From: Candidatus Borrarchaeum weybense
Lineage (GTDB): Archaea > Asgardarchaeota > Sifarchaeia > Borrarchaeales > Borrarchaeaceae
DNA length: 64,000 bases
Assembly: GCA_019057385.1 (NCBI GenBank)
Contig: JAHQJS010000007.1
Location: 352,001-416,000, forward strand
Direction: 5' to 3'
Each line of letters opens with the position of its first letter. Positions within the stretch are counted from its first letter, which is position 1. The notes under the pieces are model-generated. The model ran no database searches and was not told the origin of the DNA. It saw nothing but the letters and a program-made list of their open reading frames with translations. Shown here one piece after another: positions 1,077 to 10,858 of this stretch. Made by a program: the position numbers and the translations under genes.

Positions 1077-1796
1077 TCATATATCAGAAAAATCTCGAAG
1101 TGTCAATAAGACTTCTAGTGAACGAAACATATCTTCAGAAACGCCAAATCTTAATAAATCTCTCCATATTCTAACCATTTTGAAACCCAATTTTTTTGAT
1201 GATTCGAAAGCATCATGTTCATCATTTTCCCTAAACTGCCACCTAATTTGATTAAAAAGTGTTTGATAGGCTTTTTTAAGTTCTCTGGTTTTAATTTTTT
1301 GTGCGTCTTTCGTTTCTAAATCACAAATAATCTTATCGCTCGTTTTATCAGAGATTAATTTAAAATTGTTATATATATTAGTTTGTGGTTTTAACTTATT
1401 TAGAATTTCTTCTAAAATTGAGCTAACTTGTTTCATTGTTGCCAGTTTTATACTTTTAAAATAGAAAATATACTCATTAATTAGCCACTCATAGAACATT
1501 TTAATGTCTTGCTTGAGTTCTATTTCATCTTTTAAGTCTGGTAAAGCACTTGATTTTAGATTTTCTAATGAGAGATCAGTATGAAATAATTTTGAACCCT
1601 CTGTTCCCCTGTGTGCAAGATCTGCGTCGAAATAACTAAGTACAGCATGAATTTCTTCATTTTCTTTGCATTTGTGAAGAAATATACCAGAATACAGTCC
1701 TCCTCCCCTGGGATGTAATTGTTCTTTCTTAATAGGATGTTTGATTGTAGTTTTACATATTTCACAATACTCTGAAAAAATCTTTTGTTTAGACAT
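1077..1796 (-). CDS. hypothetical protein with N-terminal CxxC...GGL...H...H...D...RG domain
   Basis: 239-aa ORF, translationally coupled (TAATG) to the upstream GTPase; N-terminus resembles 17177..17629. Confidence 0.7.
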   Translation of the reverse strand: MSKQKIFSEYCEICKTTIKHPIKKEQLHPRGGGLYSGIFLHKCKENEEIHAVLSYFDADLAHRGTEGSKLFHTDLSLENLKSSALPDLKDEIELKQDIKMFYEWLINEYIFYFKSIKLATMKQVSSILEEILNKLKPQTNIYNNFKLISDKTSDKIICDLETKDAQKIKTRELKKAYQTLFNQIRWQFRENDEHDAFESSKKLGFKMVRIWRDLLRFGVSEDMFRSLEVLLTLRDFSDI

Positions 1797-2344
1797 TATC
1801 CTGTCACCCTGCTATAAATCGCATTCAATAGTTGAGTAAATACGTTTTCAACGTTTTCTCCAGTTTTAGAACTTGTTTTAATAAGCGAGTTAGCCGATAG
1901 ATCGTATATTTTTATGAATTCCAAAAGCTGTTCATCATTTATTGCTTCGGCACCCATTTCCTTAACAAGATCTAGTTTTGATCCCATAAACATAAGATCT
2001 GTATTGTCAATTTTCTCTCTGATAATATCATACCATTCATGGAGATTAAATAAACTAGAGATTCGTGTAAGATCAAAAGCAAATATTATCCCTTGTGCCC
2101 CCTCACAATAACTGGGTAAAATAAATCGAAATCTTTTTTCACCCCCGAAGTCCCACACTTGAAGTGTAACCATAATATTTTCACGTATTTTTTTTTCAAA
2201 AAGATAAAAAGATGTACCGATAGTCTTCTTTGTGTCTTCAACAAACTTTTTGGTAGCGTATCTATTTATAAATGTCGTCTTTCCAACGCCTCCTTCTCCT
2301 ACGACAAGTATTTTGAATATATAGGTTTTTTTTTCGCTCTCCAA
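1796..2344 (-). CDS. Rab/Ras-like small GTPase
   Basis: G1 GEGGVGKT, G2 TIG, G3 WDFGGE, G4 SKLD, G5 SSK; TTG start after GAGGT. Confidence 0.92.
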   Translation of the reverse strand: MESEKKTYIFKILVVGEGGVGKTTFINRYATKKFVEDTKKTIGTSFYLFEKKIRENIMVTLQVWDFGGEKRFRFILPSYCEGAQGIIFAFDLTRISSLFNLHEWYDIIREKIDNTDLMFMGSKLDLVKEMGAEAINDEQLLEFIKIYDLSANSLIKTSSKTGENVENVFTQLLNAIYSRVTG

Positions 2345-2577
2345 AGATTTCTACCTCTACAGTTACAGTTGGCTACTCCTTCTTTAATTTTGATTATCAT
2401 AAGATCTTTGACGACACCGTCATATATATTTTTTATGCTGTTATTGCAGCACTCGACGTCAAAACAAATCTTAAAATTCTTCAATACCAATCAAGTTTAC
2501 AAACGTAGCCACAATTAATTTAAGTCTGTTAGCTAGAATAAATTGATAAACTTTTAGATCATATGGACGGATTTTTT

Positions 2578-3669
2578 ATGAGTATTCCTAAAGAAGAATT
2601 CAGTGAAAGGGTTGCGAAAGCGAAGAAAATGATAGAAAAAAGCGATTTAGGATATCTAATTGTTTCTTCTGTACCGGATATGACCTATCTCTCTAATTAT
2701 ACTCTATACACTGGGGCTGCGAGTGTCCTTATTCCAAAGGAAAACGAACCTGTGCTTTTGATAGATCAAGATTGGGACCTCTTAAGAGCTAAAGAAATCT
2801 CAGGTATTTCAGACACACAAGCTACTTCAGACCTAAAGGTTGGTGTTCCAGAGATTCTTAAAAATACCTATGTTGACGGTAAAATCGGGATTGTTGGCTG
2901 GAGCAATTTCCCTACTCCTCTCTACTTAGCCATCAAAAATAAATTTCCAAATGTAGAATTTATAGACGCAACAGATATTATAAGAACCTTAAGGATGATA
3001 AAAAGTCCTGCTGAGATATCATGCTTAAAAAATGCAGCAAGAATAACAGATGCTGGTGCAAAAACAGTCACCGAAGCTTTAGAGATAGGTAAAACAGAAC
3101 TTGAAATAGTGCTCCAAGCAGAAGCCACTATGAAATTAGCAGGTGCTCGTGAACTGTCATTTCCGACAGTTCTTGGATCAGGAGATAGAACAGAGTTAAT
3201 TGTTCCTCAGCCAACGGAAAAGAAGATAGAAATGAATGACCTCATTCTAATGGATCTTGGAGGTAGATATAATGGATATTGCGCAGATATTTCAAGAACA
3301 AAGATCGTTGGAACCCCAACTCAAGAACAGAAGGATCTCTTTGAAGTCGTGCTACAAATGCATAAAGAGGCTATTGAGACAGTGAAACCCGGGGTTAAGG
3401 CCTTTGAGGTGCACGAAGTTGGAAAACAGGTTGCACAAGAAGCCGGCTATGGAGAATATGTTGTGCATCTAATAGGACATGGTTTGGGGCTAGAAGAACA
3501 CGAACCCCCCATACTTGAAACGGAAGAAACTGAACTAGTTCCAGGAATAGTTCATTCGATCGAGCCAGGCCTTTATATACCAGGGGTCGGTGGGATAAGG
3601 GTTGAGGATACGGTTTTAGTGACTGAAACTGGTTGCAAATTATTAACTTCATTTGACAGAGATCTTTGA
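2578..3669 (+). CDS. Xaa-Pro aminopeptidase / prolidase (M24B)
   Basis: Creatinase-N domain followed by DLG..YCADISRT, GHGLGLEEHE, IEPGLY, GIRVED metal-binding motifs; start moved to ATG 2578. Confidence 0.93.
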   Translation: MSIPKEEFSERVAKAKKMIEKSDLGYLIVSSVPDMTYLSNYTLYTGAASVLIPKENEPVLLIDQDWDLLRAKEISGISDTQATSDLKVGVPEILKNTYVDGKIGIVGWSNFPTPLYLAIKNKFPNVEFIDATDIIRTLRMIKSPAEISCLKNAARITDAGAKTVTEALEIGKTELEIVLQAEATMKLAGARELSFPTVLGSGDRTELIVPQPTEKKIEMNDLILMDLGGRYNGYCADISRTKIVGTPTQEQKDLFEVVLQMHKEAIETVKPGVKAFEVHEVGKQVAQEAGYGEYVVHLIGHGLGLEEHEPPILETEETELVPGIVHSIEPGLYIPGVGGIRVEDTVLVTETGCKLLTSFDRDL

Positions 3670-3750
3670 ATTTCAGATGACACTCCCAATAATTAAAAAG
3701 GTATAGATGTACATGTAAAACCCAGTCTATCCAATTCGAGAGGTGAGTAA

Positions 3751-4050
3751 ATGTCTGAACATCCTTTAAAGATTATTGAAACGCTCGATCCAGAACTTCA
3801 CAAACTTGTACAAAATACTGCTGAATTTGCTCTTGAGGATGGTGCATTACCTCAGAAGTTTAAATTTCTTCTTGCGATGGCTCTAGATGCAGCTCATGGT
3901 GCAGTTCGAGGGGTAAAATTTTTAGCTCGAGCAGCAATGCAATCAGGTGCGACAAAAGAAGAGGTTATGGAAACATTACGTGTCACTCATTATGTTAGTG
4001 GTGCAGGGAGTATCTACACGGCAGCACAAGCACTAGGAGAGTTATTTTAA
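3751..4050 (+). CDS. carboxymuconolactone decarboxylase (AhpD-like) family protein
   Basis: GALPQKFKFLLAMALDA...GATKEEVME pattern; GAGGTGA SD. Confidence 0.85.
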   Translation: MSEHPLKIIETLDPELHKLVQNTAEFALEDGALPQKFKFLLAMALDAAHGAVRGVKFLARAAMQSGATKEEVMETLRVTHYVSGAGSIYTAAQALGELF

Positions 4051-4109
4051 CCAAAAAATTTACCGAGCGCTTGTTTTCACCCTTTTTGAAAGCAATAAAG
4101 GTGAATGGT

Positions 4110-4148
4110 TTGCATGTTGATACTCACATTCATGCTGACGGGATGAGT
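4110..4148 (+). pseudogene. orphan 5' end of a TatD-family gene (MHVDTHIHADGMS) interrupted by an IS200/IS605-type end
   Basis: AGGTGA SD, TTG start, DTHIH metal motif; matches the N-terminus of 4432..5202 in amino acids but differs at most third codon positions. Confidence 0.75.
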
Positions 4149-4431
4149 AAACTACCTCATGCTTAAGCATTAAGGCTTATAGCTATACTTAGGATCAATC
4201 CTCTTCCTAACAGAAGAGTTTCAACGTCATCATACGCTAAATAATGGGGGCGTTTACAAGACCCCAGCCCAGTAATCCTCATATAGAGTCGGGCTATACA
4301 TGTTTACTCATCACCATCATTAAGGTCATAAACCGTTTCCACTTCTATGAGAGGTGTGCCTTGAGACCACTTTCTTATACCCACGAAGACTTATTTAAAA
4401 TAGGAGAGACCTTCCTAAAAGTGAAAACATC
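4147..4431 (-). mobile_element. non-autonomous IS200/IS605 derivative with TnpB-type right end and structured RNA; left boundary uncertain (4431 or 4471)
   Basis: Minus strand ends AAGCCTTAATGCTTAAGCATGAGGTAGTTTAC, similar to the ends at 15035 and 61647; internal hairpins (CTCTTC..GAAGAG, GCCC..GGGC); no transposase ORF. Confidence 0.72.
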
Positions 4432-5202
4432 ATGAATCTTATTGACACCCACATACACGTAGACGGAATGAGTGAAGATGAACTGAGAGAAATGGTTTCT
4501 AATGGTATAACACGCGCAATCACTTGTGCTTATTTTCCCATTGAACCAAATTACACTCAAACCCTAATTGATTTGTTCACAAGGCTTATCGACTACGATG
4601 TGCCTAAAACCCGGGAGTGGGGCTTAGATCTATACGCTGCGATAGGAATTCATCCTCGTTCCATTCCAAAAGCCGGCTTTGACCAGATAATTGAGGTTAT
4701 GAAAACCTTATATAAACATGAATTTGTAGTTGCCTTTGGTGAAACAGGTCTACAATTAGGTTCAAACAAAGAAATTGATGCTTTAAAATCACAACTCGAA
4801 CTAGCAAAAGATTGTGACTTTCCTATAATAGTCCACACTCCAAGTGCCAACAAACTCAAAGTTACAGAAAAAACTTTACCTATAATTGATAAAATTCGAA
4901 TCAATCCCGAATTAGTAGTATTAGATCATGTTAATGACGAAACAATGTCTAAAGTGGATAAATCTGGTTATAACGTAGGACTTACAGTACAATCTGGTAA
5001 ATTACTACCAGAAACGGCCGCTGAGTTGATTATTCAATATGCTGATAGTAATATTATCGTGCTAAATAGCGACAATGGATTTCGTAAGTGTAATATCACG
5101 AGTGTTGCACAGACGATTGAAAGTCTAAAATCTCATGGAGTTGAAAAAAAACTTCTAGAAAGAATATCTCATAAGAATGCTGAAAAAATCTTCAAATTTT
5201 AA
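4432..5202 (+). CDS. TatD family hydrolase
   Basis: IDTHIH, GIHPR, FGETGL, IIVHTP, LDH, LNSD motifs. Confidence 0.92.
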   Translation: MNLIDTHIHVDGMSEDELREMVSNGITRAITCAYFPIEPNYTQTLIDLFTRLIDYDVPKTREWGLDLYAAIGIHPRSIPKAGFDQIIEVMKTLYKHEFVVAFGETGLQLGSNKEIDALKSQLELAKDCDFPIIVHTPSANKLKVTEKTLPIIDKIRINPELVVLDHVNDETMSKVDKSGYNVGLTVQSGKLLPETAAELIIQYADSNIIVLNSDNGFRKCNITSVAQTIESLKSHGVEKKLLERISHKNAEKIFKF

Positions 5203-5219
5203 AAACTAGAAGTGCACCG

Positions 5220-5678
5220 TTAGGTTTTCTTTTTTGCGGCTTCTAATCTCCTTTTCACAAGTTCATTGTTAGGATCGATTTCCACTGCCTTCTTTAAACA
5301 TTCAATTTCTTGAGCATGATTTCCTATTTCCCCGTAAGCAACTGCCATATTATACCATGCCCTTTCATGTTGAGGGTTGAGTTCTATTGCTTTTTCACAA
5401 TTTTCGACTACCTTTCTATGATCTCTAAGTGCACCGTAAGCTAATGCCATAGCGTACCATGCCTCTTCTAACTTAGGTGTGATATCTATAACTTTTTGAA
5501 AGCACTCAATAGCTTTATTATGCTCACCAAACATTCCGTAAGCAACACCCATATTGTACCAGACCTTATAGTGTTTTGGATCAATCTTTAACGCTTTTTC
5601 GTATTCACTTATTGCTTTTTGGTATTGATTTTGTTCAAAATACTCATATCCTCTTTTGAAGTAATCGTCTACTGACAT
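5220..5678 (-). CDS. TPR protein (about 4 repeats)
   Basis: 34-aa periodicity W..MG.AY...G....AI.C..KA.E..P. Confidence 0.92.
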   Translation of the reverse strand: MSVDDYFKRGYEYFEQNQYQKAISEYEKALKIDPKHYKVWYNMGVAYGMFGEHNKAIECFQKVIDITPKLEEAWYAMALAYGALRDHRKVVENCEKAIELNPQHERAWYNMAVAYGEIGNHAQEIECLKKAVEIDPNNELVKRRLEAAKKKT

Positions 5679-5691
5679 GGACCTCTCTTCC

Positions 5692-6456
5692 TCAGTGTAC
5701 TCGCCATTTTTTTCGATTAAAAAGTTTTTTGAACCTTCCCTTTTTTTCAGTTCTTGGTTCCATTACTTCTTCTATAACTTCTGAATTACTAGTATTAAGT
5801 TGTTCCATTTCATTCTGATTACTTGAAATTTCTTCAGTTTCAACTTCTAAGTTATCACTTTCGTTAATTAATCCTTTAGGGTTGGATGGGGAGTTCTCCA
5901 CCATTTTAGTGAAACTATCTAACATTAAGGATTCGTGCAGTTTCATTTTATCTGAAACATGCAAAATTCTACCTGATTTTTCTGTAGCATCAGCTTGCAA
6001 CGACATGGAACAACAGGTCTGAAACGAAGGTTTCCCATATTCTGAAATAAATAACCATGCTTCTTGATATGGACTTTTGTCATTTCGTAATTCTAATTGG
6101 CGATCAAACTGAATTCCACCACTCTTTACTCCTTCATGCAGTTCAACGACAATTTCACGAGGATATTCTGATAGAAAATCAACAAATTCTATGAATTCTC
6201 CAACACTCACACGTTTTTCAAGCCGGACTTCTCTAGCGACTTTCAAAGCAAAATCAACTGCTTGCTTCAATTGTTCGATCCCATGTTTTTGATAATACTT
6301 ATAAGCAGTAGCATACGCCTCAATAAAACCTCTTTTCTGAAGAAACTCTTCTACGTGCAATTCGCCAAGCCTGATTTGATTTTGAAGTAACCTAACATGG
6401 GTTTTCCCAAGTCCAGCTATCACGTCTACAGCGTTGCGAAACTCAATTATACTCAT
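5692..6456 (-). CDS. hypothetical protein with acidic low-complexity tail and basic C-terminus
   Basis: 254-aa ORF, co-oriented 13 bp upstream of the TPR gene. Confidence 0.7.
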   Translation of the reverse strand: MSIIEFRNAVDVIAGLGKTHVRLLQNQIRLGELHVEEFLQKRGFIEAYATAYKYYQKHGIEQLKQAVDFALKVAREVRLEKRVSVGEFIEFVDFLSEYPREIVVELHEGVKSGGIQFDRQLELRNDKSPYQEAWLFISEYGKPSFQTCCSMSLQADATEKSGRILHVSDKMKLHESLMLDSFTKMVENSPSNPKGLINESDNLEVETEEISSNQNEMEQLNTSNSEVIEEVMEPRTEKKGRFKKLFNRKKWRVH

Positions 6457-7182
6457 ATCTAGATCACTTGATTCTTCTTAAGAAAGGCACTACTTCGTTG
6501 TATTTTAATATTTTTAGAACAATTATCACTTGCTAGAATCAAACAAAATCAGAATTTTAGGATGAGAAGTTTTTTAACAAGGTCTTGGAGAAAAAAATAC
6601 TTGTATATCCTTTTTTTTGATTAAGGAAATAAAAAATAAAAACATGGTGACATTATCTGCGTTCTTTAGTAGACTAGACTTAACAACATCCAGCACATTT
6701 GGATACAGCTGACATTCTTCTTTTTGCTTTTTTCAAAATAATCACCTTTGAAGTAACAAGGATTTTTTTTTAAAAAGAATTTCGATTAAGGTAAAGCAAG
6801 CCAATGACTCTTGAAAACTAAATGAAGATATCATTTAAAATTCAATTTTCAAAAGTGTTGGCAGGAGTTTTTTAAGAATTTAAAAAGCTAAGAAAACTAA
6901 TCTTAAATAAAACTATCATTTAAAGAAATCATTTTTCATTTCTACCGCTAAGACTATTCAAATTATTGTCATAATCTATAATATAGCATTACCAAATAGG
7001 TTAGTTTTATATACTTATCGATCCATATCAATATATAGATATAAAAAAGGTATAGTTTGTGGGAACGTCATTTCCTGAAAATTACATACTGATGATCTGA
7101 TTTTCGTGAAGTATTTCGTGTCTATTAGCTCATATGCTCATCGTTAAACCTATACAGAAAACTAATATTAGGGGAATAAAAA

Positions 7183-8145
7183 ATGAGTGATATAGAGATT
7201 GAAAGAAGAACTAAAACTAATGAAGACATCAGCTTCTGTAGGGAAATTCGCTGTAATGAATGTGGCTCACTTAATGTTGTTTGTGATGATACTCGGGGAG
7301 AGATCATTTGTAATGACTGTGGATTGGTTATTGAAGAACATATGGTTGATACAGGGCCAGAATGGCGTAGCTACACGGCGGAAGAACGAAAAAAGAGAGA
7401 CCGTGTAGGCAGCCCCATGAATTATTCTATACATGATAAAGGCTTGTCCACAATTATTGGTCCAGAAAATAGAGATAGTTATGGAAACAATCTGGCACCT
7501 CGTCGACGAGCAGAAATCTATAGATTGAGAAAGTGGCAACGACGTACTAGAACGCACAGTTCAAGGGACCGAAACCTCATACAAGCTCTTAGTGAATTAG
7601 ATCGCCTAGCAAGTCAAATGGGCATTCCAAAATCCATTAAAGAAGAAGCAGCCATTATTTATCGAAAAGCATTAGAAAAAAAGATGAGTAGAAGCACTTC
7701 AATAGAATCCTTGGTTGCTGCTTCGCTTTATGCAGCCTGTAGAATTAGACAAATCCCCCGTACTCTTGATGAAATTGCAGAAAAGTCACATATTAGTAAA
7801 AAACAACTGGGACAAGCGTTTCGATTACTTGCAAGAAGAGTTAACATGTCTATTCCGTTAAGTACACCAATAGACTTTATCCCAAGATTTGCTAATGACC
7901 TAGGTCTCTCAGTAAGTGTATCTAGCAGAGCTAAAAAACTTCTGAAAAAAGCAAAAGAGGCAGGTATTACCGCAGGCAAAGATCCAACTGGAATGGCCGC
8001 TGCCGCGCTCTATATTGCTGGAATATTAGAAGATGAAAGAAGAACACAGCGAGAAATTGCGCGGGTAGCACGAGTCACCGAAGTTACAGTTCGAAATCGA
8101 TATAAAGAGCTAGTAAAGTATCTCCAGATTGCAGTTGCAACATAA
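7183..8145 (+). CDS. tfb: transcription initiation factor IIB (TFB)
   Basis: CxxC..CxxC Zn ribbon, GPEWR B-reader, two cyclin folds, VTEVTVRNRYKEL. Confidence 0.97.
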   Translation: MSDIEIERRTKTNEDISFCREIRCNECGSLNVVCDDTRGEIICNDCGLVIEEHMVDTGPEWRSYTAEERKKRDRVGSPMNYSIHDKGLSTIIGPENRDSYGNNLAPRRRAEIYRLRKWQRRTRTHSSRDRNLIQALSELDRLASQMGIPKSIKEEAAIIYRKALEKKMSRSTSIESLVAASLYAACRIRQIPRTLDEIAEKSHISKKQLGQAFRLLARRVNMSIPLSTPIDFIPRFANDLGLSVSVSSRAKKLLKKAKEAGITAGKDPTGMAAAALYIAGILEDERRTQREIARVARVTEVTVRNRYKELVKYLQIAVAT

Positions 8146-8483
8146 AACTCCTACAGAAGCTTTACTCTTTTTTTAACTGAATTTTTTCTTATACTGAACT
8201 GATTTCACTTTTTAAAATTCTCTTTCAACATTTAAGTTGAAAAAAATTGACTTTTTTTGCGTTAAATTATACCAACGATATGTTTATGCTTAAGAACTAA
8301 CAGAAAGTTATGAATTTGTTAACTCTTTTTTGATTGATAAATATCATCACTTGTTTTACTTTTTGCTTAATGCTGTTAATTGACTTAGAAATTAAACTAA
8401 TAATAGAAATACTTTTACTTTCACCGATCTCTCTATATTTAAAATACAAGATTTTACAAGTATATGTGAGATAGGTGATTATT

Positions 8484-9419
8484 ATGGTTGAACTGGAAGA
8501 ACTACCAGGTGTAGGCCCAGCAACAGCTGTAAAATTGAAAGAAGCAGGATACGCGTCTCTTGAAACATTAGCCGTAGCTTCACCCAAAGAACTATCAACT
8601 GCTGTCGATATTGGTGAAACTACTGCTCAAAAAATAATTCAAGCGGCACGTGAGCAATTAGAAATAGGATATTCCACAGCTCTAGAATTCTATGATACAC
8701 GTAAGGCTGTTGGGCGTATAACCACAGGTAGTCAACAATTAGATGCAGTACTAGGTGGTGGTGTAGAAACCAATGCCATTACTGAATTTTATGGGCCTTT
8801 CCGATCAGGTAAGACGCAACTTTGCCACGAATTATGTATAAAGGTACAACTTCCTCCAGAAAATGGAGGATTAAGTGGTGCAGCCTTATATGTTGATACT
8901 GAAGGTACTTTTCGTCCTGAACGTATTGTTCAAATGATGGAAAAGGAAGATCTTGAAATTGATTCAACCTTACAGAATGTAGTCTATGCAAGAGCCTACA
9001 ATAGTGATCATCAGATTTTACTTGTTGAGGAATCAGCAGCTATAATTAAGGAAAAGAATATTAAATTATTTATTGTGGATGCACTGACTAGTTATTTCAG
9101 GAGCGAATATACTGGTCGTGGAACACTTGCAGAGCGACAACAGAAACTTAATAAACACTTACACCAACTGCTCCGTCTTGCAGAAGTGAATAACTTAGCA
9201 GTTGTGGTCACCAATCAAGTGATGTCTAGACCAGATATGTTCTTTGGCGATCCCACAGCTCCCGTTGGTGGGCATATCGTAGCCCATGCATGTACTACAC
9301 GTATTTATTTGCGTAAATCCAAAGGAGATCGACGGATTGCACGAGTAATCGATAGCCCATGCCTTCCCGAAGCTGAGGCTGTATTTACAATCCAAGAAGG
9401 CGGTATTGGAGACCCATAG
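8484..9419 (+). CDS. radA: DNA repair/recombination protein RadA
   Basis: LPGVGP HhH, Walker [31 protein letters not shown]; ATG 8484 follows GGTGA. Confidence 0.97.
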
Positions 9420-9420
9420 A

Positions 9421-9438
9421 ACTTTTTTTCTTTTTCTT
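9421..9438 (+). terminator. oligo-T tract, probable archaeal terminator
   Basis: ACTTTTTTTCTTTTTCTT immediately after the radA stop. Confidence 0.5.
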
Positions 9439-9913
9439 ATGGCGTAGAAAGTTGTTAAATCATCTCATTCATTAGAAGTCTAGATTAGTGCCCAAAATTA
9501 AAGGCAAAATGGAAAATAGAAATGATTTCGAGTAAAATATGTGCTCTTTAACAACTTTAAAATGTTTAGATTTACCTTTATCCCAAATTGTCCATTTAGA
9601 AAAGCATCATAAAGATTTTTGTGGACATCGACTATATGAAAGAACTTTTCTAGAAATCAATCAATAAGACAAATAATTTTTTTATTTTCACCGCTAAAAT
9701 TTTACATTTTTTCCTTATAGTATCAATTTAAATACTTTATCTCCTTATATAGTAAAAAACTAATGATATTTATAGGATCTTTGGGAAAGTGCGAGAAAAT
9801 TATGAGACCTTTTTTTAGAGAGGCATTATGCGCACTAGAATAGTTGCGTCTACCCTTTAACTAATTTAGTTCTTTGATAAGTTAAAGTAGAGGCAGTTGC
9901 TAATAATGGAGGA

Positions 9914-10858
9914 TTGGTAATCATAGAAAAGTGTCAATTAAAACATGATGAAAATAAGTGTTCTGAGTTTGAATGTAGATCAATTAACCTCGTTTTTGAT
10001 GACTCCCGAGGTGAACTTATCTGTGATAAGTGTGGTCTAGTTATCGAAGAACATATAATTGATAGAGGACCTGAATGGCGAAGTTTCACAACTGAAGATC
10101 AAAAGAATAAAAGCCGCGTAGGAAGCCCTATTAATTATACTATTCACGATAAAGGATTATCTACAACACTTGGTTATGGGTACCGAGACGCCAAAGGAGG
10201 AAAAATCGCACCAGTGAGACGAGCAGAAATCTACAGATTGCGAAGGTTGCAAAGAAGAGCACGGATTACCAATTGTAGGGAACGAAATCTTGTTCAAGCA
10301 TTTAGAGAGTTAGGCCGCTTATCAAGTCAATTGGGTATTCCAAGATCTACGAAAGAAGAAGCAGCAATTATTTATAAAAAAGCGTGGGAGACTAAAATGG
10401 GAATAGGCATATCTACAGACGTTATGGTTGCTGCTACACTTTATGCCGCCTGTCGAATCAGAAAAAATCCTCTCACCTTAGATGAAGTTGCAAAAAAAGC
10501 ACGAATCAGTAAAAAAATACTTGGTCAATGGTTTCTGCGTCTTAAAAAAACGATAAATCTTTCAGTACCATTAAACACGCCTCGTGACTTTATATCACGC
10601 TTTTCTAATGAATTAAAACTCTCAGACAAAGTCGCCAGGAGAGCCATAAAAATCCTTGAGGATGCCAAAGACGAAGGTATCACAACAGGAAAAACGCCAA
10701 CTGGATTAGCTGCTGCTGCACTTTATTTTGCCGGAGAACTTGAAGATGAAAGAAGAACAAAACTAGAAATTGCAAAGGTAGCACAGGTCACAGACGTAAC
10801 CATAAGAAATAGATACAAGGATTTAGTAAAAAATCTTGAAATAGAAGTTACAGTGTAA
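9914..10858 (+). CDS. tfb: second, divergent TFB paralogue
   Basis: GPEWR, cyclin folds, VTDVTIRNRYKDL; first Zn knuckle is C-x4-C; TTG start after GGAGG. Confidence 0.95.
   Translation: MVIIEKCQLKHDENKCSEFECRSINLVFDDSRGELICDKCGLVIEEHIIDRGPEWRSFTTEDQKNKSRVGSPINYTIHDKGLSTTLGYGYRDAKGGKIAPVRRAEIYRLRRLQRRARITNCRERNLVQAFRELGRLSSQLGIPRSTKEEAAIIYKKAWETKMGIGISTDVMVAATLYAACRIRKNPLTLDEVAKKARISKKILGQWFLRLKKTINLSVPLNTPRDFISRFSNELKLSDKVARRAIKILEDAKDEGITTGKTPTGLAAAALYFAGELEDERRTKLEIAKVAQVTDVTIRNRYKDLVKNLEIEVTV

Follow-up and report, generated by a model that had tools for sequence, protein, structure and literature searches.

A tatD gene interrupted by an IS200/IS605 mini-element and probably restored from a divergent allele in Candidatus Borrarchaeum weybense

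PATEs, the closest described relatives of the element reported here, likewise have no protein gene, carry subterminal hairpins, use a tetranucleotide target and show a core deletion of tnpB (PMC3119063; PMC10055086). Their omegaRNAs are expected to rely on TnpB in trans (PMC10055086). In TnpB retention and homing (PMC10055086), as at the present locus, the right-flank guide and the TAM match the empty allele exactly. The archaeal SisTnpB1 cuts 15-28 nt from the TAM; its seed comprises positions 1-10, and single changes except at +1 have little effect (PMC10640517). SXT/R391 ICEs also hit the 5' end of a gene, prfC, where a replacement start restores a hybrid protein (PMC7251087). TldR dead-TnpB repressors (PMC10705468) resemble the locus in having a guide that matches the 5' region of a nearby host gene.

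We analysed a window of 64,000 nt from the genome of Candidatus Borrarchaeum weybense (host genome G000; window G000:C7:352001-416000; positions below are those of the window unless a contig is named). An earlier note, made from the sequence alone, had proposed that tatD in this window contains an omegaRNA-bearing insertion with its own recoded gene start, possibly a cleave-and-rescue element. Sequence comparison points to insertion followed by one-sided recombination with a divergent tatD allele, which would have restored a full tatD; we put the probability of this reading at roughly 0.7.

The tatD operon and its mini-element

A Pfam search of the window gave the operon order peptidase M24, CMD, tatD. 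The TatD protein clusters with that of a named Candidatus Borrarchaeum sp., an Asgard archaeon. The CMD-family gene (3751-4050, plus strand; PF02627) is the upstream operon member, and the gene order is constant in all relatives. It is followed by the native 5' end of tatD (4110-4146, plus), now orphaned, whose SD, TTG start and codons 1-13 match the empty allele of L092 and L095 at 36 of 37 positions. The TTG start at 4110 gives LHVDTHIHADGMS and runs into the IS, yielding an 18-aa peptide that ends with TAA at 4164-4166. As the earlier note had described, with correct coordinates and sequences, this start and its SD halt at an IS200/IS605 right end at 4147, and the same peptide restarts downstream with changed third positions. 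Deletion of 4147-4471 does produce an in-frame tatD of 257 codons, and GTGA stands directly after 4471, so that the junction is preceded by TCAC on the minus strand. The restored tatD (4432-5202, plus) is complete, encodes 256 aa with a PF01026 match over residues 4-255, and is the sole tatD match in G000; the HxH, GETG, HTP, DH and SD motifs could all be read from its sequence. The mundane alternative that the note had offered, the remnant of a tandem tatD paralogue, was discarded: G000 contains one tatD, and every relative has a single tatD after CMD. Elsewhere in the window, radA is flanked by two TFIIB paralogues (7183-10858). At the equivalent of window position 6457, by the start of a 254-aa gene, L050 carries a 1.3-kb insertion with an IscB-like ORF (L050:1628-2924).

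The stretch duplicated beside the TAM is 23/30 identical, compared with a maximum of 19/30 for 74 other G000 right ends and 26 congener siblings, indicating that the duplicated tatD start is not a chance resemblance. Two Logan contigs assembled from the short reads of SRR14802572, L093 (0 mismatches over 3042 nt) and L058, reproduced both junctions without a mismatch. The same right-end junction was present in a second MAG, L094 (GCA_019058475.1), for which a search for the downstream contig found none. Together these contigs ruled out an assembly artefact or chimera.

Judged by its sequence, 4147 to about 4429 is a protein-free IS200/IS605 mini-element of the PATE type with an intact omegaRNA scaffold. 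It shows 76-86% identity to about 25 mini-elements of ~340 nt each in G000 and four congeners; the element was present in 10 of the 301 phylum genomes searched. The siblings are arranged as right end, omegaRNA scaffold common with full-length tnpB copies, tnpB remnant, TATA-like box and left end. In the window copy, sibling alignment placed the right end, with a subterminal hairpin and a terminal TTAC, at 4147-4177 (minus). The omegaRNA scaffold of a TnpB family spans 4147-4310 (minus), stops at the right end and is homologous to a tnpB 3' end, with ~80% identity to that of the copy at G000:C7:821405. This scaffold keeps 32 of 32 base pairs of a consensus that included the window row, despite 18 private substitutions, and it gave no Rfam match. 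A tnpB coding remnant left by the core deletion occupies 4311-4370 (minus), matches C7:821873-821892 inside tnpB at 20 of 20 positions and is found in all mini-element siblings. The conserved, nearly palindromic TATA-like box at 4392-4402 also occurs in the full-length copy, 32 nt before the tnpB ATG. On the minus strand it is a predicted omegaRNA promoter with a start near 4367, and on the plus strand a possible outward promoter for tatD, 38 nt before the ATG at 4432. The window copy is the most divergent sibling, with 18 private changes in 280 nt that sit in both halves (7 in 4164-4210 and 11 in 4310-4414).

Intact siblings have a terminal hairpin, then GTGA and then a variable fifth base, which identifies the TAM as TCAC, as the earlier note had supposed. 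The target motif is fixed and not duplicated: TCAC adjoins about 25 siblings, and the L092 empty allele joins exactly at TCAC. The motif originally targeted lies at 4472-4475 (minus), forms the Ser-Glu codons of tatD and is kept in most tatD alleles. A ~55-nt left-end hairpin segment ending in GTGA is present in the siblings and missing from the window copy. The IS sequence breaks off at the base of the left-end stem in a putative illegitimate joint (4421-4440, plus) that holds the ATG at 4432, where siblings run on into the hairpin; no second source of 4426-4446 was found in G000. The element had been delimited as 4147-4471. Its right end at 4147 holds, but IS homology ends at about 4429 (at most 4440), not at 4471. 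The lack of a left-end hairpin near 4471 had been seen correctly; the hairpin is replaced by tatD sequence, so the element is immobile, and the window copy reads as a truncated PATE member.

Matches to the TnpB-type zinc ribbon number 41 in G000, which also has at least 75 IS200/IS605 right ends and a single Y1 transposase. The sole cognate tnpB of the TCAC family in G000 (G000:C7:821405-822700; L002; C7:822566, minus) has intact RuvC residues and a TAA at codon 52. Sec and Pyl recoding use TGA and TAG, not TAA. Both types of recoding are described for Borrarchaeum (PMC9723677). No further cognate TnpB was found in G000, the next tblastn matches being at most 27% identical; intact D-E-D TnpB homologues are present in G001 and G004 (L071, L088). 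Separately, L090 (G004:C13) encodes a full-length TnpB in which the second RuvC acid is changed from E to K, a candidate natural dead nuclease. One insertion site is occupied in two species (G000:C8:29172-29513 and L066, G004:C19), and the right flank there resembles the left end of another IS, a nested insertion. At G000:C4:921860-922260, a right end and a truncated body are followed by an inverted left-end segment, giving a rearranged IS-end pair.

Origin of the divergent tatD start

A search of related genomes for the empty allele, as suggested in the earlier note, was successful. The window is 99.6% identical to L092 (GCA_019058535.1) over 1251-4151, and both L092 and L095 run uninterrupted across the insertion junction. 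This empty allele, from which 4110-4146 differs at one base in L092, identifies the upstream fragment as the native tatD start and the ancestral N-terminus. The TCAC-targeted insertion at tatD codon 13 splits the HxH off from the rest of the gene. The omegaRNA guide is the reverse complement of the native start at 4110-4146. As predicted, it is perfect against the empty allele, which exists exactly in L092 and L095, and matches the downstream tatD copy at 15/20, with mismatches at TAM-proximal positions 5, 11, 12, 14 and 17.

The 'recoded' start and 101 nt beyond the TAM (4440-4572, plus) match L059 and L060, IS-free tatD alleles from two ENA metagenomes, at 133 of 133 positions, and thus appear to be a patch of a natural divergent allele; 22 of these 133 positions differ from the empty allele L092. 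The divergent stretch does begin inside the insert, as had been noted, but it ends at 4572, not at 4471. Within the patch, mismatch clusters at 4496-4511 and 4545-4560 are as dense as the guide site, which is therefore not singled out. Downstream of 4572 the window represents a third type, 3.5% from L056, 6.7% from L092 and 9.2% from L059. The neighbouring genes change affinity block by block, with lineages exchanging blocks of 100-1000 nt. By these comparisons the tatD region is a recombination mosaic, and the synonymous differences can accordingly be seen as ordinary allelic divergence. Recoding de novo or by a DGR-like process, considered in view of 5 of 8 changes at minus-strand A, was rejected, as the allele is a natural one and a third-position T bias accounts for the pattern. 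The segment 4430-4439 with the new ATG may be the decayed start of the IS stem, which it resembles, or the donor's own start. A relative (P0005, P0031), apparently with an L059/L060-type downstream gene, has an MNHIDTH start and 256 aa, which shows that a native start of the MNx kind can occur; a donor contig carrying exactly the 4430-4439 sequence did not turn up.

Comparison of window positions 3250-6450 with L048-L060, L092, L033 and L034 revealed block-wise allele exchange among Borrarchaeum lineages that differ by 4-28%; for example, tatD genes only 66% identical in protein follow CMD genes that are nearly identical. After tatD, L059 and L060 carry an extra gene for a 193-aa VIT1/CCC1-like (TIGR00267) membrane protein before the TPR gene, which is not in the window.

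In the favoured sequence of events, a ~340-nt protein-free element, with promoter, tnpB remnant and omegaRNA between its ends and presumably moved in trans by TnpA, entered the native tatD at codon 13, on the 3' side of TCAC, and severed the metal-binding HxH. The disrupted intermediate would be a full element that keeps its left end and is followed by GTGAAGATG. The IS-bearing allele would then have recombined with an IS-free, ~16% divergent tatD allele from a related population, homologously on the tatD side and illegitimately, by microhomology, where the left-end hairpin begins at its foot. The mechanism was probably either homology-facilitated illegitimate recombination or template switching at that hairpin. 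Such an event accounts for the deleted left end and for the heteroallelic duplication of ~31 nt that flanks the remnant on both sides. Selection presumably keeps the restored full tatD, which is probably transcribed via operon read-through or the TATA box of the element. This reading is supported by the exact empty allele in conspecifics, by the patch running 101 nt past the TAM and by the siblings with a normal left end.

Three histories fit these data: the patch entered the disrupted allele; a chromosome with an L059-type allele already in place received a copy of the right part of the element; or L059 and L060 derived from a window-like allele by deletion of 4116-4439. At CMD sites 3813 and 3831 the window is like L059 and L060, and L094 carries the IS on the L092 haplotype. 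L059 and L060 have the recipient-type TTG start and may therefore themselves be derived. Each of the three histories calls for homology on one side and, at the left-end stem, an illegitimate joint. The combination of the most divergent element with flanks 99.6% like the empty allele requires an unsampled subfamily or an older history.

Two other readings assume a different kind of insert or donor. The least probable of all those considered is that 4147-4471 is a mobile element whose gene start was recoded for the purpose, comparable to site-specific ICEs that come with a replacement for a gene end. Deleting 4147-4471 would regenerate the in-frame gene with TCAC at the joint, and the guide mismatches the replacement start. 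However, no left-end hairpin or guide tetranucleotide is left for TnpA, the arrangement is single copy in G000, and the patch reaches 101 nt outside and exists IS-free in L059 and L060, which largely refutes a cargo. The proposal that the insert carries its own recoded start fails on the same natural allele and on the siblings, 0 of which hold such cargo; the genome-wide search for other copies returned cargo-free siblings at unrelated TCAC sites. It is very unlikely that the donor held an old, left-end-deleted copy upstream of tatD and that a crossover inside the element joined it to a fresh codon-13 insertion. Such an exchange would account for how divergent the element is and for a native ATG, with no need of a new illegitimate joint, and the likeness of GTGA to the archaeal SD core makes gene starts common targets. 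Yet homologous genes would have to have been hit twice, independently, at sites 50 nt apart, the private changes are spread over both element halves, and no such donor was seen.

Overwritten left tips and the role of TnpB

For each of the 25 siblings with both ends preserved, the left tip was compared with the right flank. In two of the 25, the left tip is replaced by an exact copy of the pre-insertion flank, 11 and 9 nt long, while the maximum tip-flank identity was 4 nt in 600 mismatched pairs. The 11-nt copy at G000:C4:1213869-1214190 (L109, L122) rebuilds the ATG of an 83-aa Cys-rich gene, and this C4:1214190 copy retains an 11-nt perfect seed and the TAM. The 9-nt tip at L064 (G004:C113:32416-32758; empty homologue G000:C7:330578, L129) rebuilds an SD; this case is weaker, as the normal tip already resembles the L064 flank. 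Uninterrupted homologues (L127, L129) bear out both contexts, and by sequence both tips look like short versions of the window event. A 6-nt tip in the TTAT-target family (G000:C4:893129) was rejected, since the same tip occurs in the copy of a relative (L176), and no other overwritten tip was found in 41 pairs of that family. A position-free search for flank repeats at 148 right ends gave nothing above the null except the C4 copy. In the literature, of which coverage was incomplete, overwriting of left tips was not found described for IS200/IS605 elements, and this is weak evidence for novelty. GTGA resembles the archaeal SD core, so gene starts are frequent landing sites of the TCAC family, and repaired copies would be favoured there.

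TnpB may conceivably have helped, in the past, to form or select these joints. In aborted homing, TnpB would cut the empty allele, copying from the right end would stall at the left-end hairpin and rejoin to the other side, and uncleavable products, those with a short or mismatched target, would be selected. We consider this unlikely. The position of the joint at the foot of the left-end stem fits it, as do the 9- and 11-nt tips, shorter than the 15-28 nt cut distance (PMC10640517), and a scaffold that keeps all consensus pairs. The guide fully matches L092, L095 and L048, of which L095 comes from the same study site, the cassette is found on two CMD haplotypes (window versus L094, sites 3813 and 3831), and congeners hold intact cognate TnpBs (L071, L088). 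But 32 nt remain on the guide side of the patch in the window, more than would be left by a cut at this site, and the sole cognate tnpB of G000 has its TAA at codon 52. The haplotype switch is explained by ordinary recombination, common here, and long perfect repeats are also lost through plain deletion. The patch keeps the TAM and has 5/20 mismatches to the guide, a single one within positions 1-10, and SisTnpB1 tolerates most single mismatches; the patched allele may thus not be protected, and its immunity is not assured. It would be a still bolder claim, and an improbable one, that homing set off by TnpB and stalled at the hairpin repeatedly leads to left-tip overwriting in the TCAC family, rebuilds the beginnings of interrupted genes and, when a divergent allele serves as the patch, leaves a home-and-rescue omegaRNA cassette for TnpB in trans. 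Were aborted homing true, the window allele would be a natural home-and-rescue cassette, converting guide-matching alleles at no cost to tatD. Cleave-and-rescue as such is unsupported by the sequence of this locus: the left end is gone, and no intact cognate nuclease linked to the cassette or present with it was found in G000. Highly improbable, too, is a domesticated omegaRNA that guides a nuclease-dead TnpB to repress tatD in the manner of TldR, a form of the non-cutting regulation raised in the earlier note. The promoter-like box and scaffold are intact, and the best TAM-adjacent target in G000 is the tatD start, at 15/20, the next best being 13/20. Against this, the way in which the element inserted produces the guide match automatically, conspecifics are polymorphic for the allele, and G000 yielded no intact protein of the family (next tblastn matches at most 27%) and no dead TnpB of it.

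Comparison with known systems

Known processes largely account for the locus, and the window holds one repaired insertion; the main interest lies in recurrence, as three cases in one small family make the event testable at scale. Overwriting of the left end by host sequence would be a route to neutralise IS200/IS605 gene-start insertions without excision or splicing. The element is immobilised and its guide RNA still aimed at the ancestral allele, a plausible first step toward domesticated guide RNAs. Should TnpB prove to cause or select the joints, homing could be read from genomes by this footprint. The comparisons also document fine-scale allele exchange between Asgard lineages that differ by 4-19%.

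Homology-facilitated illegitimate recombination uses one homologous anchor and one microhomology joint, at which recipient DNA is deleted. The process (de Vries and Wackernagel 2002, cited in PMC2884548) is known from transformable bacteria, whereas here it is inferred from sequence in an Asgard archaeon, at an IS hairpin. TldR systems (PMC10705468) differ from the locus in that G000 lacks an intact or dead cognate protein and the guide has no conserved gene association. TnpB homing normally copies the full element (PMC10055086); the window copy is truncated, tatD is whole and the cognate tnpB of G000 is broken. Like that of PATEs, the omegaRNA of the element would depend on TnpB and TnpA in trans (PMC10055086), but the left end of the window copy has been replaced by host gene sequence, with a flank duplication that PATE insertion does not make. 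Finally, the replacement start of SXT/R391 is fixed cargo placed by a site-specific integrase (PMC7251087), whereas that of the window is a one-off patch next to an element whose specificity is only TCAC.
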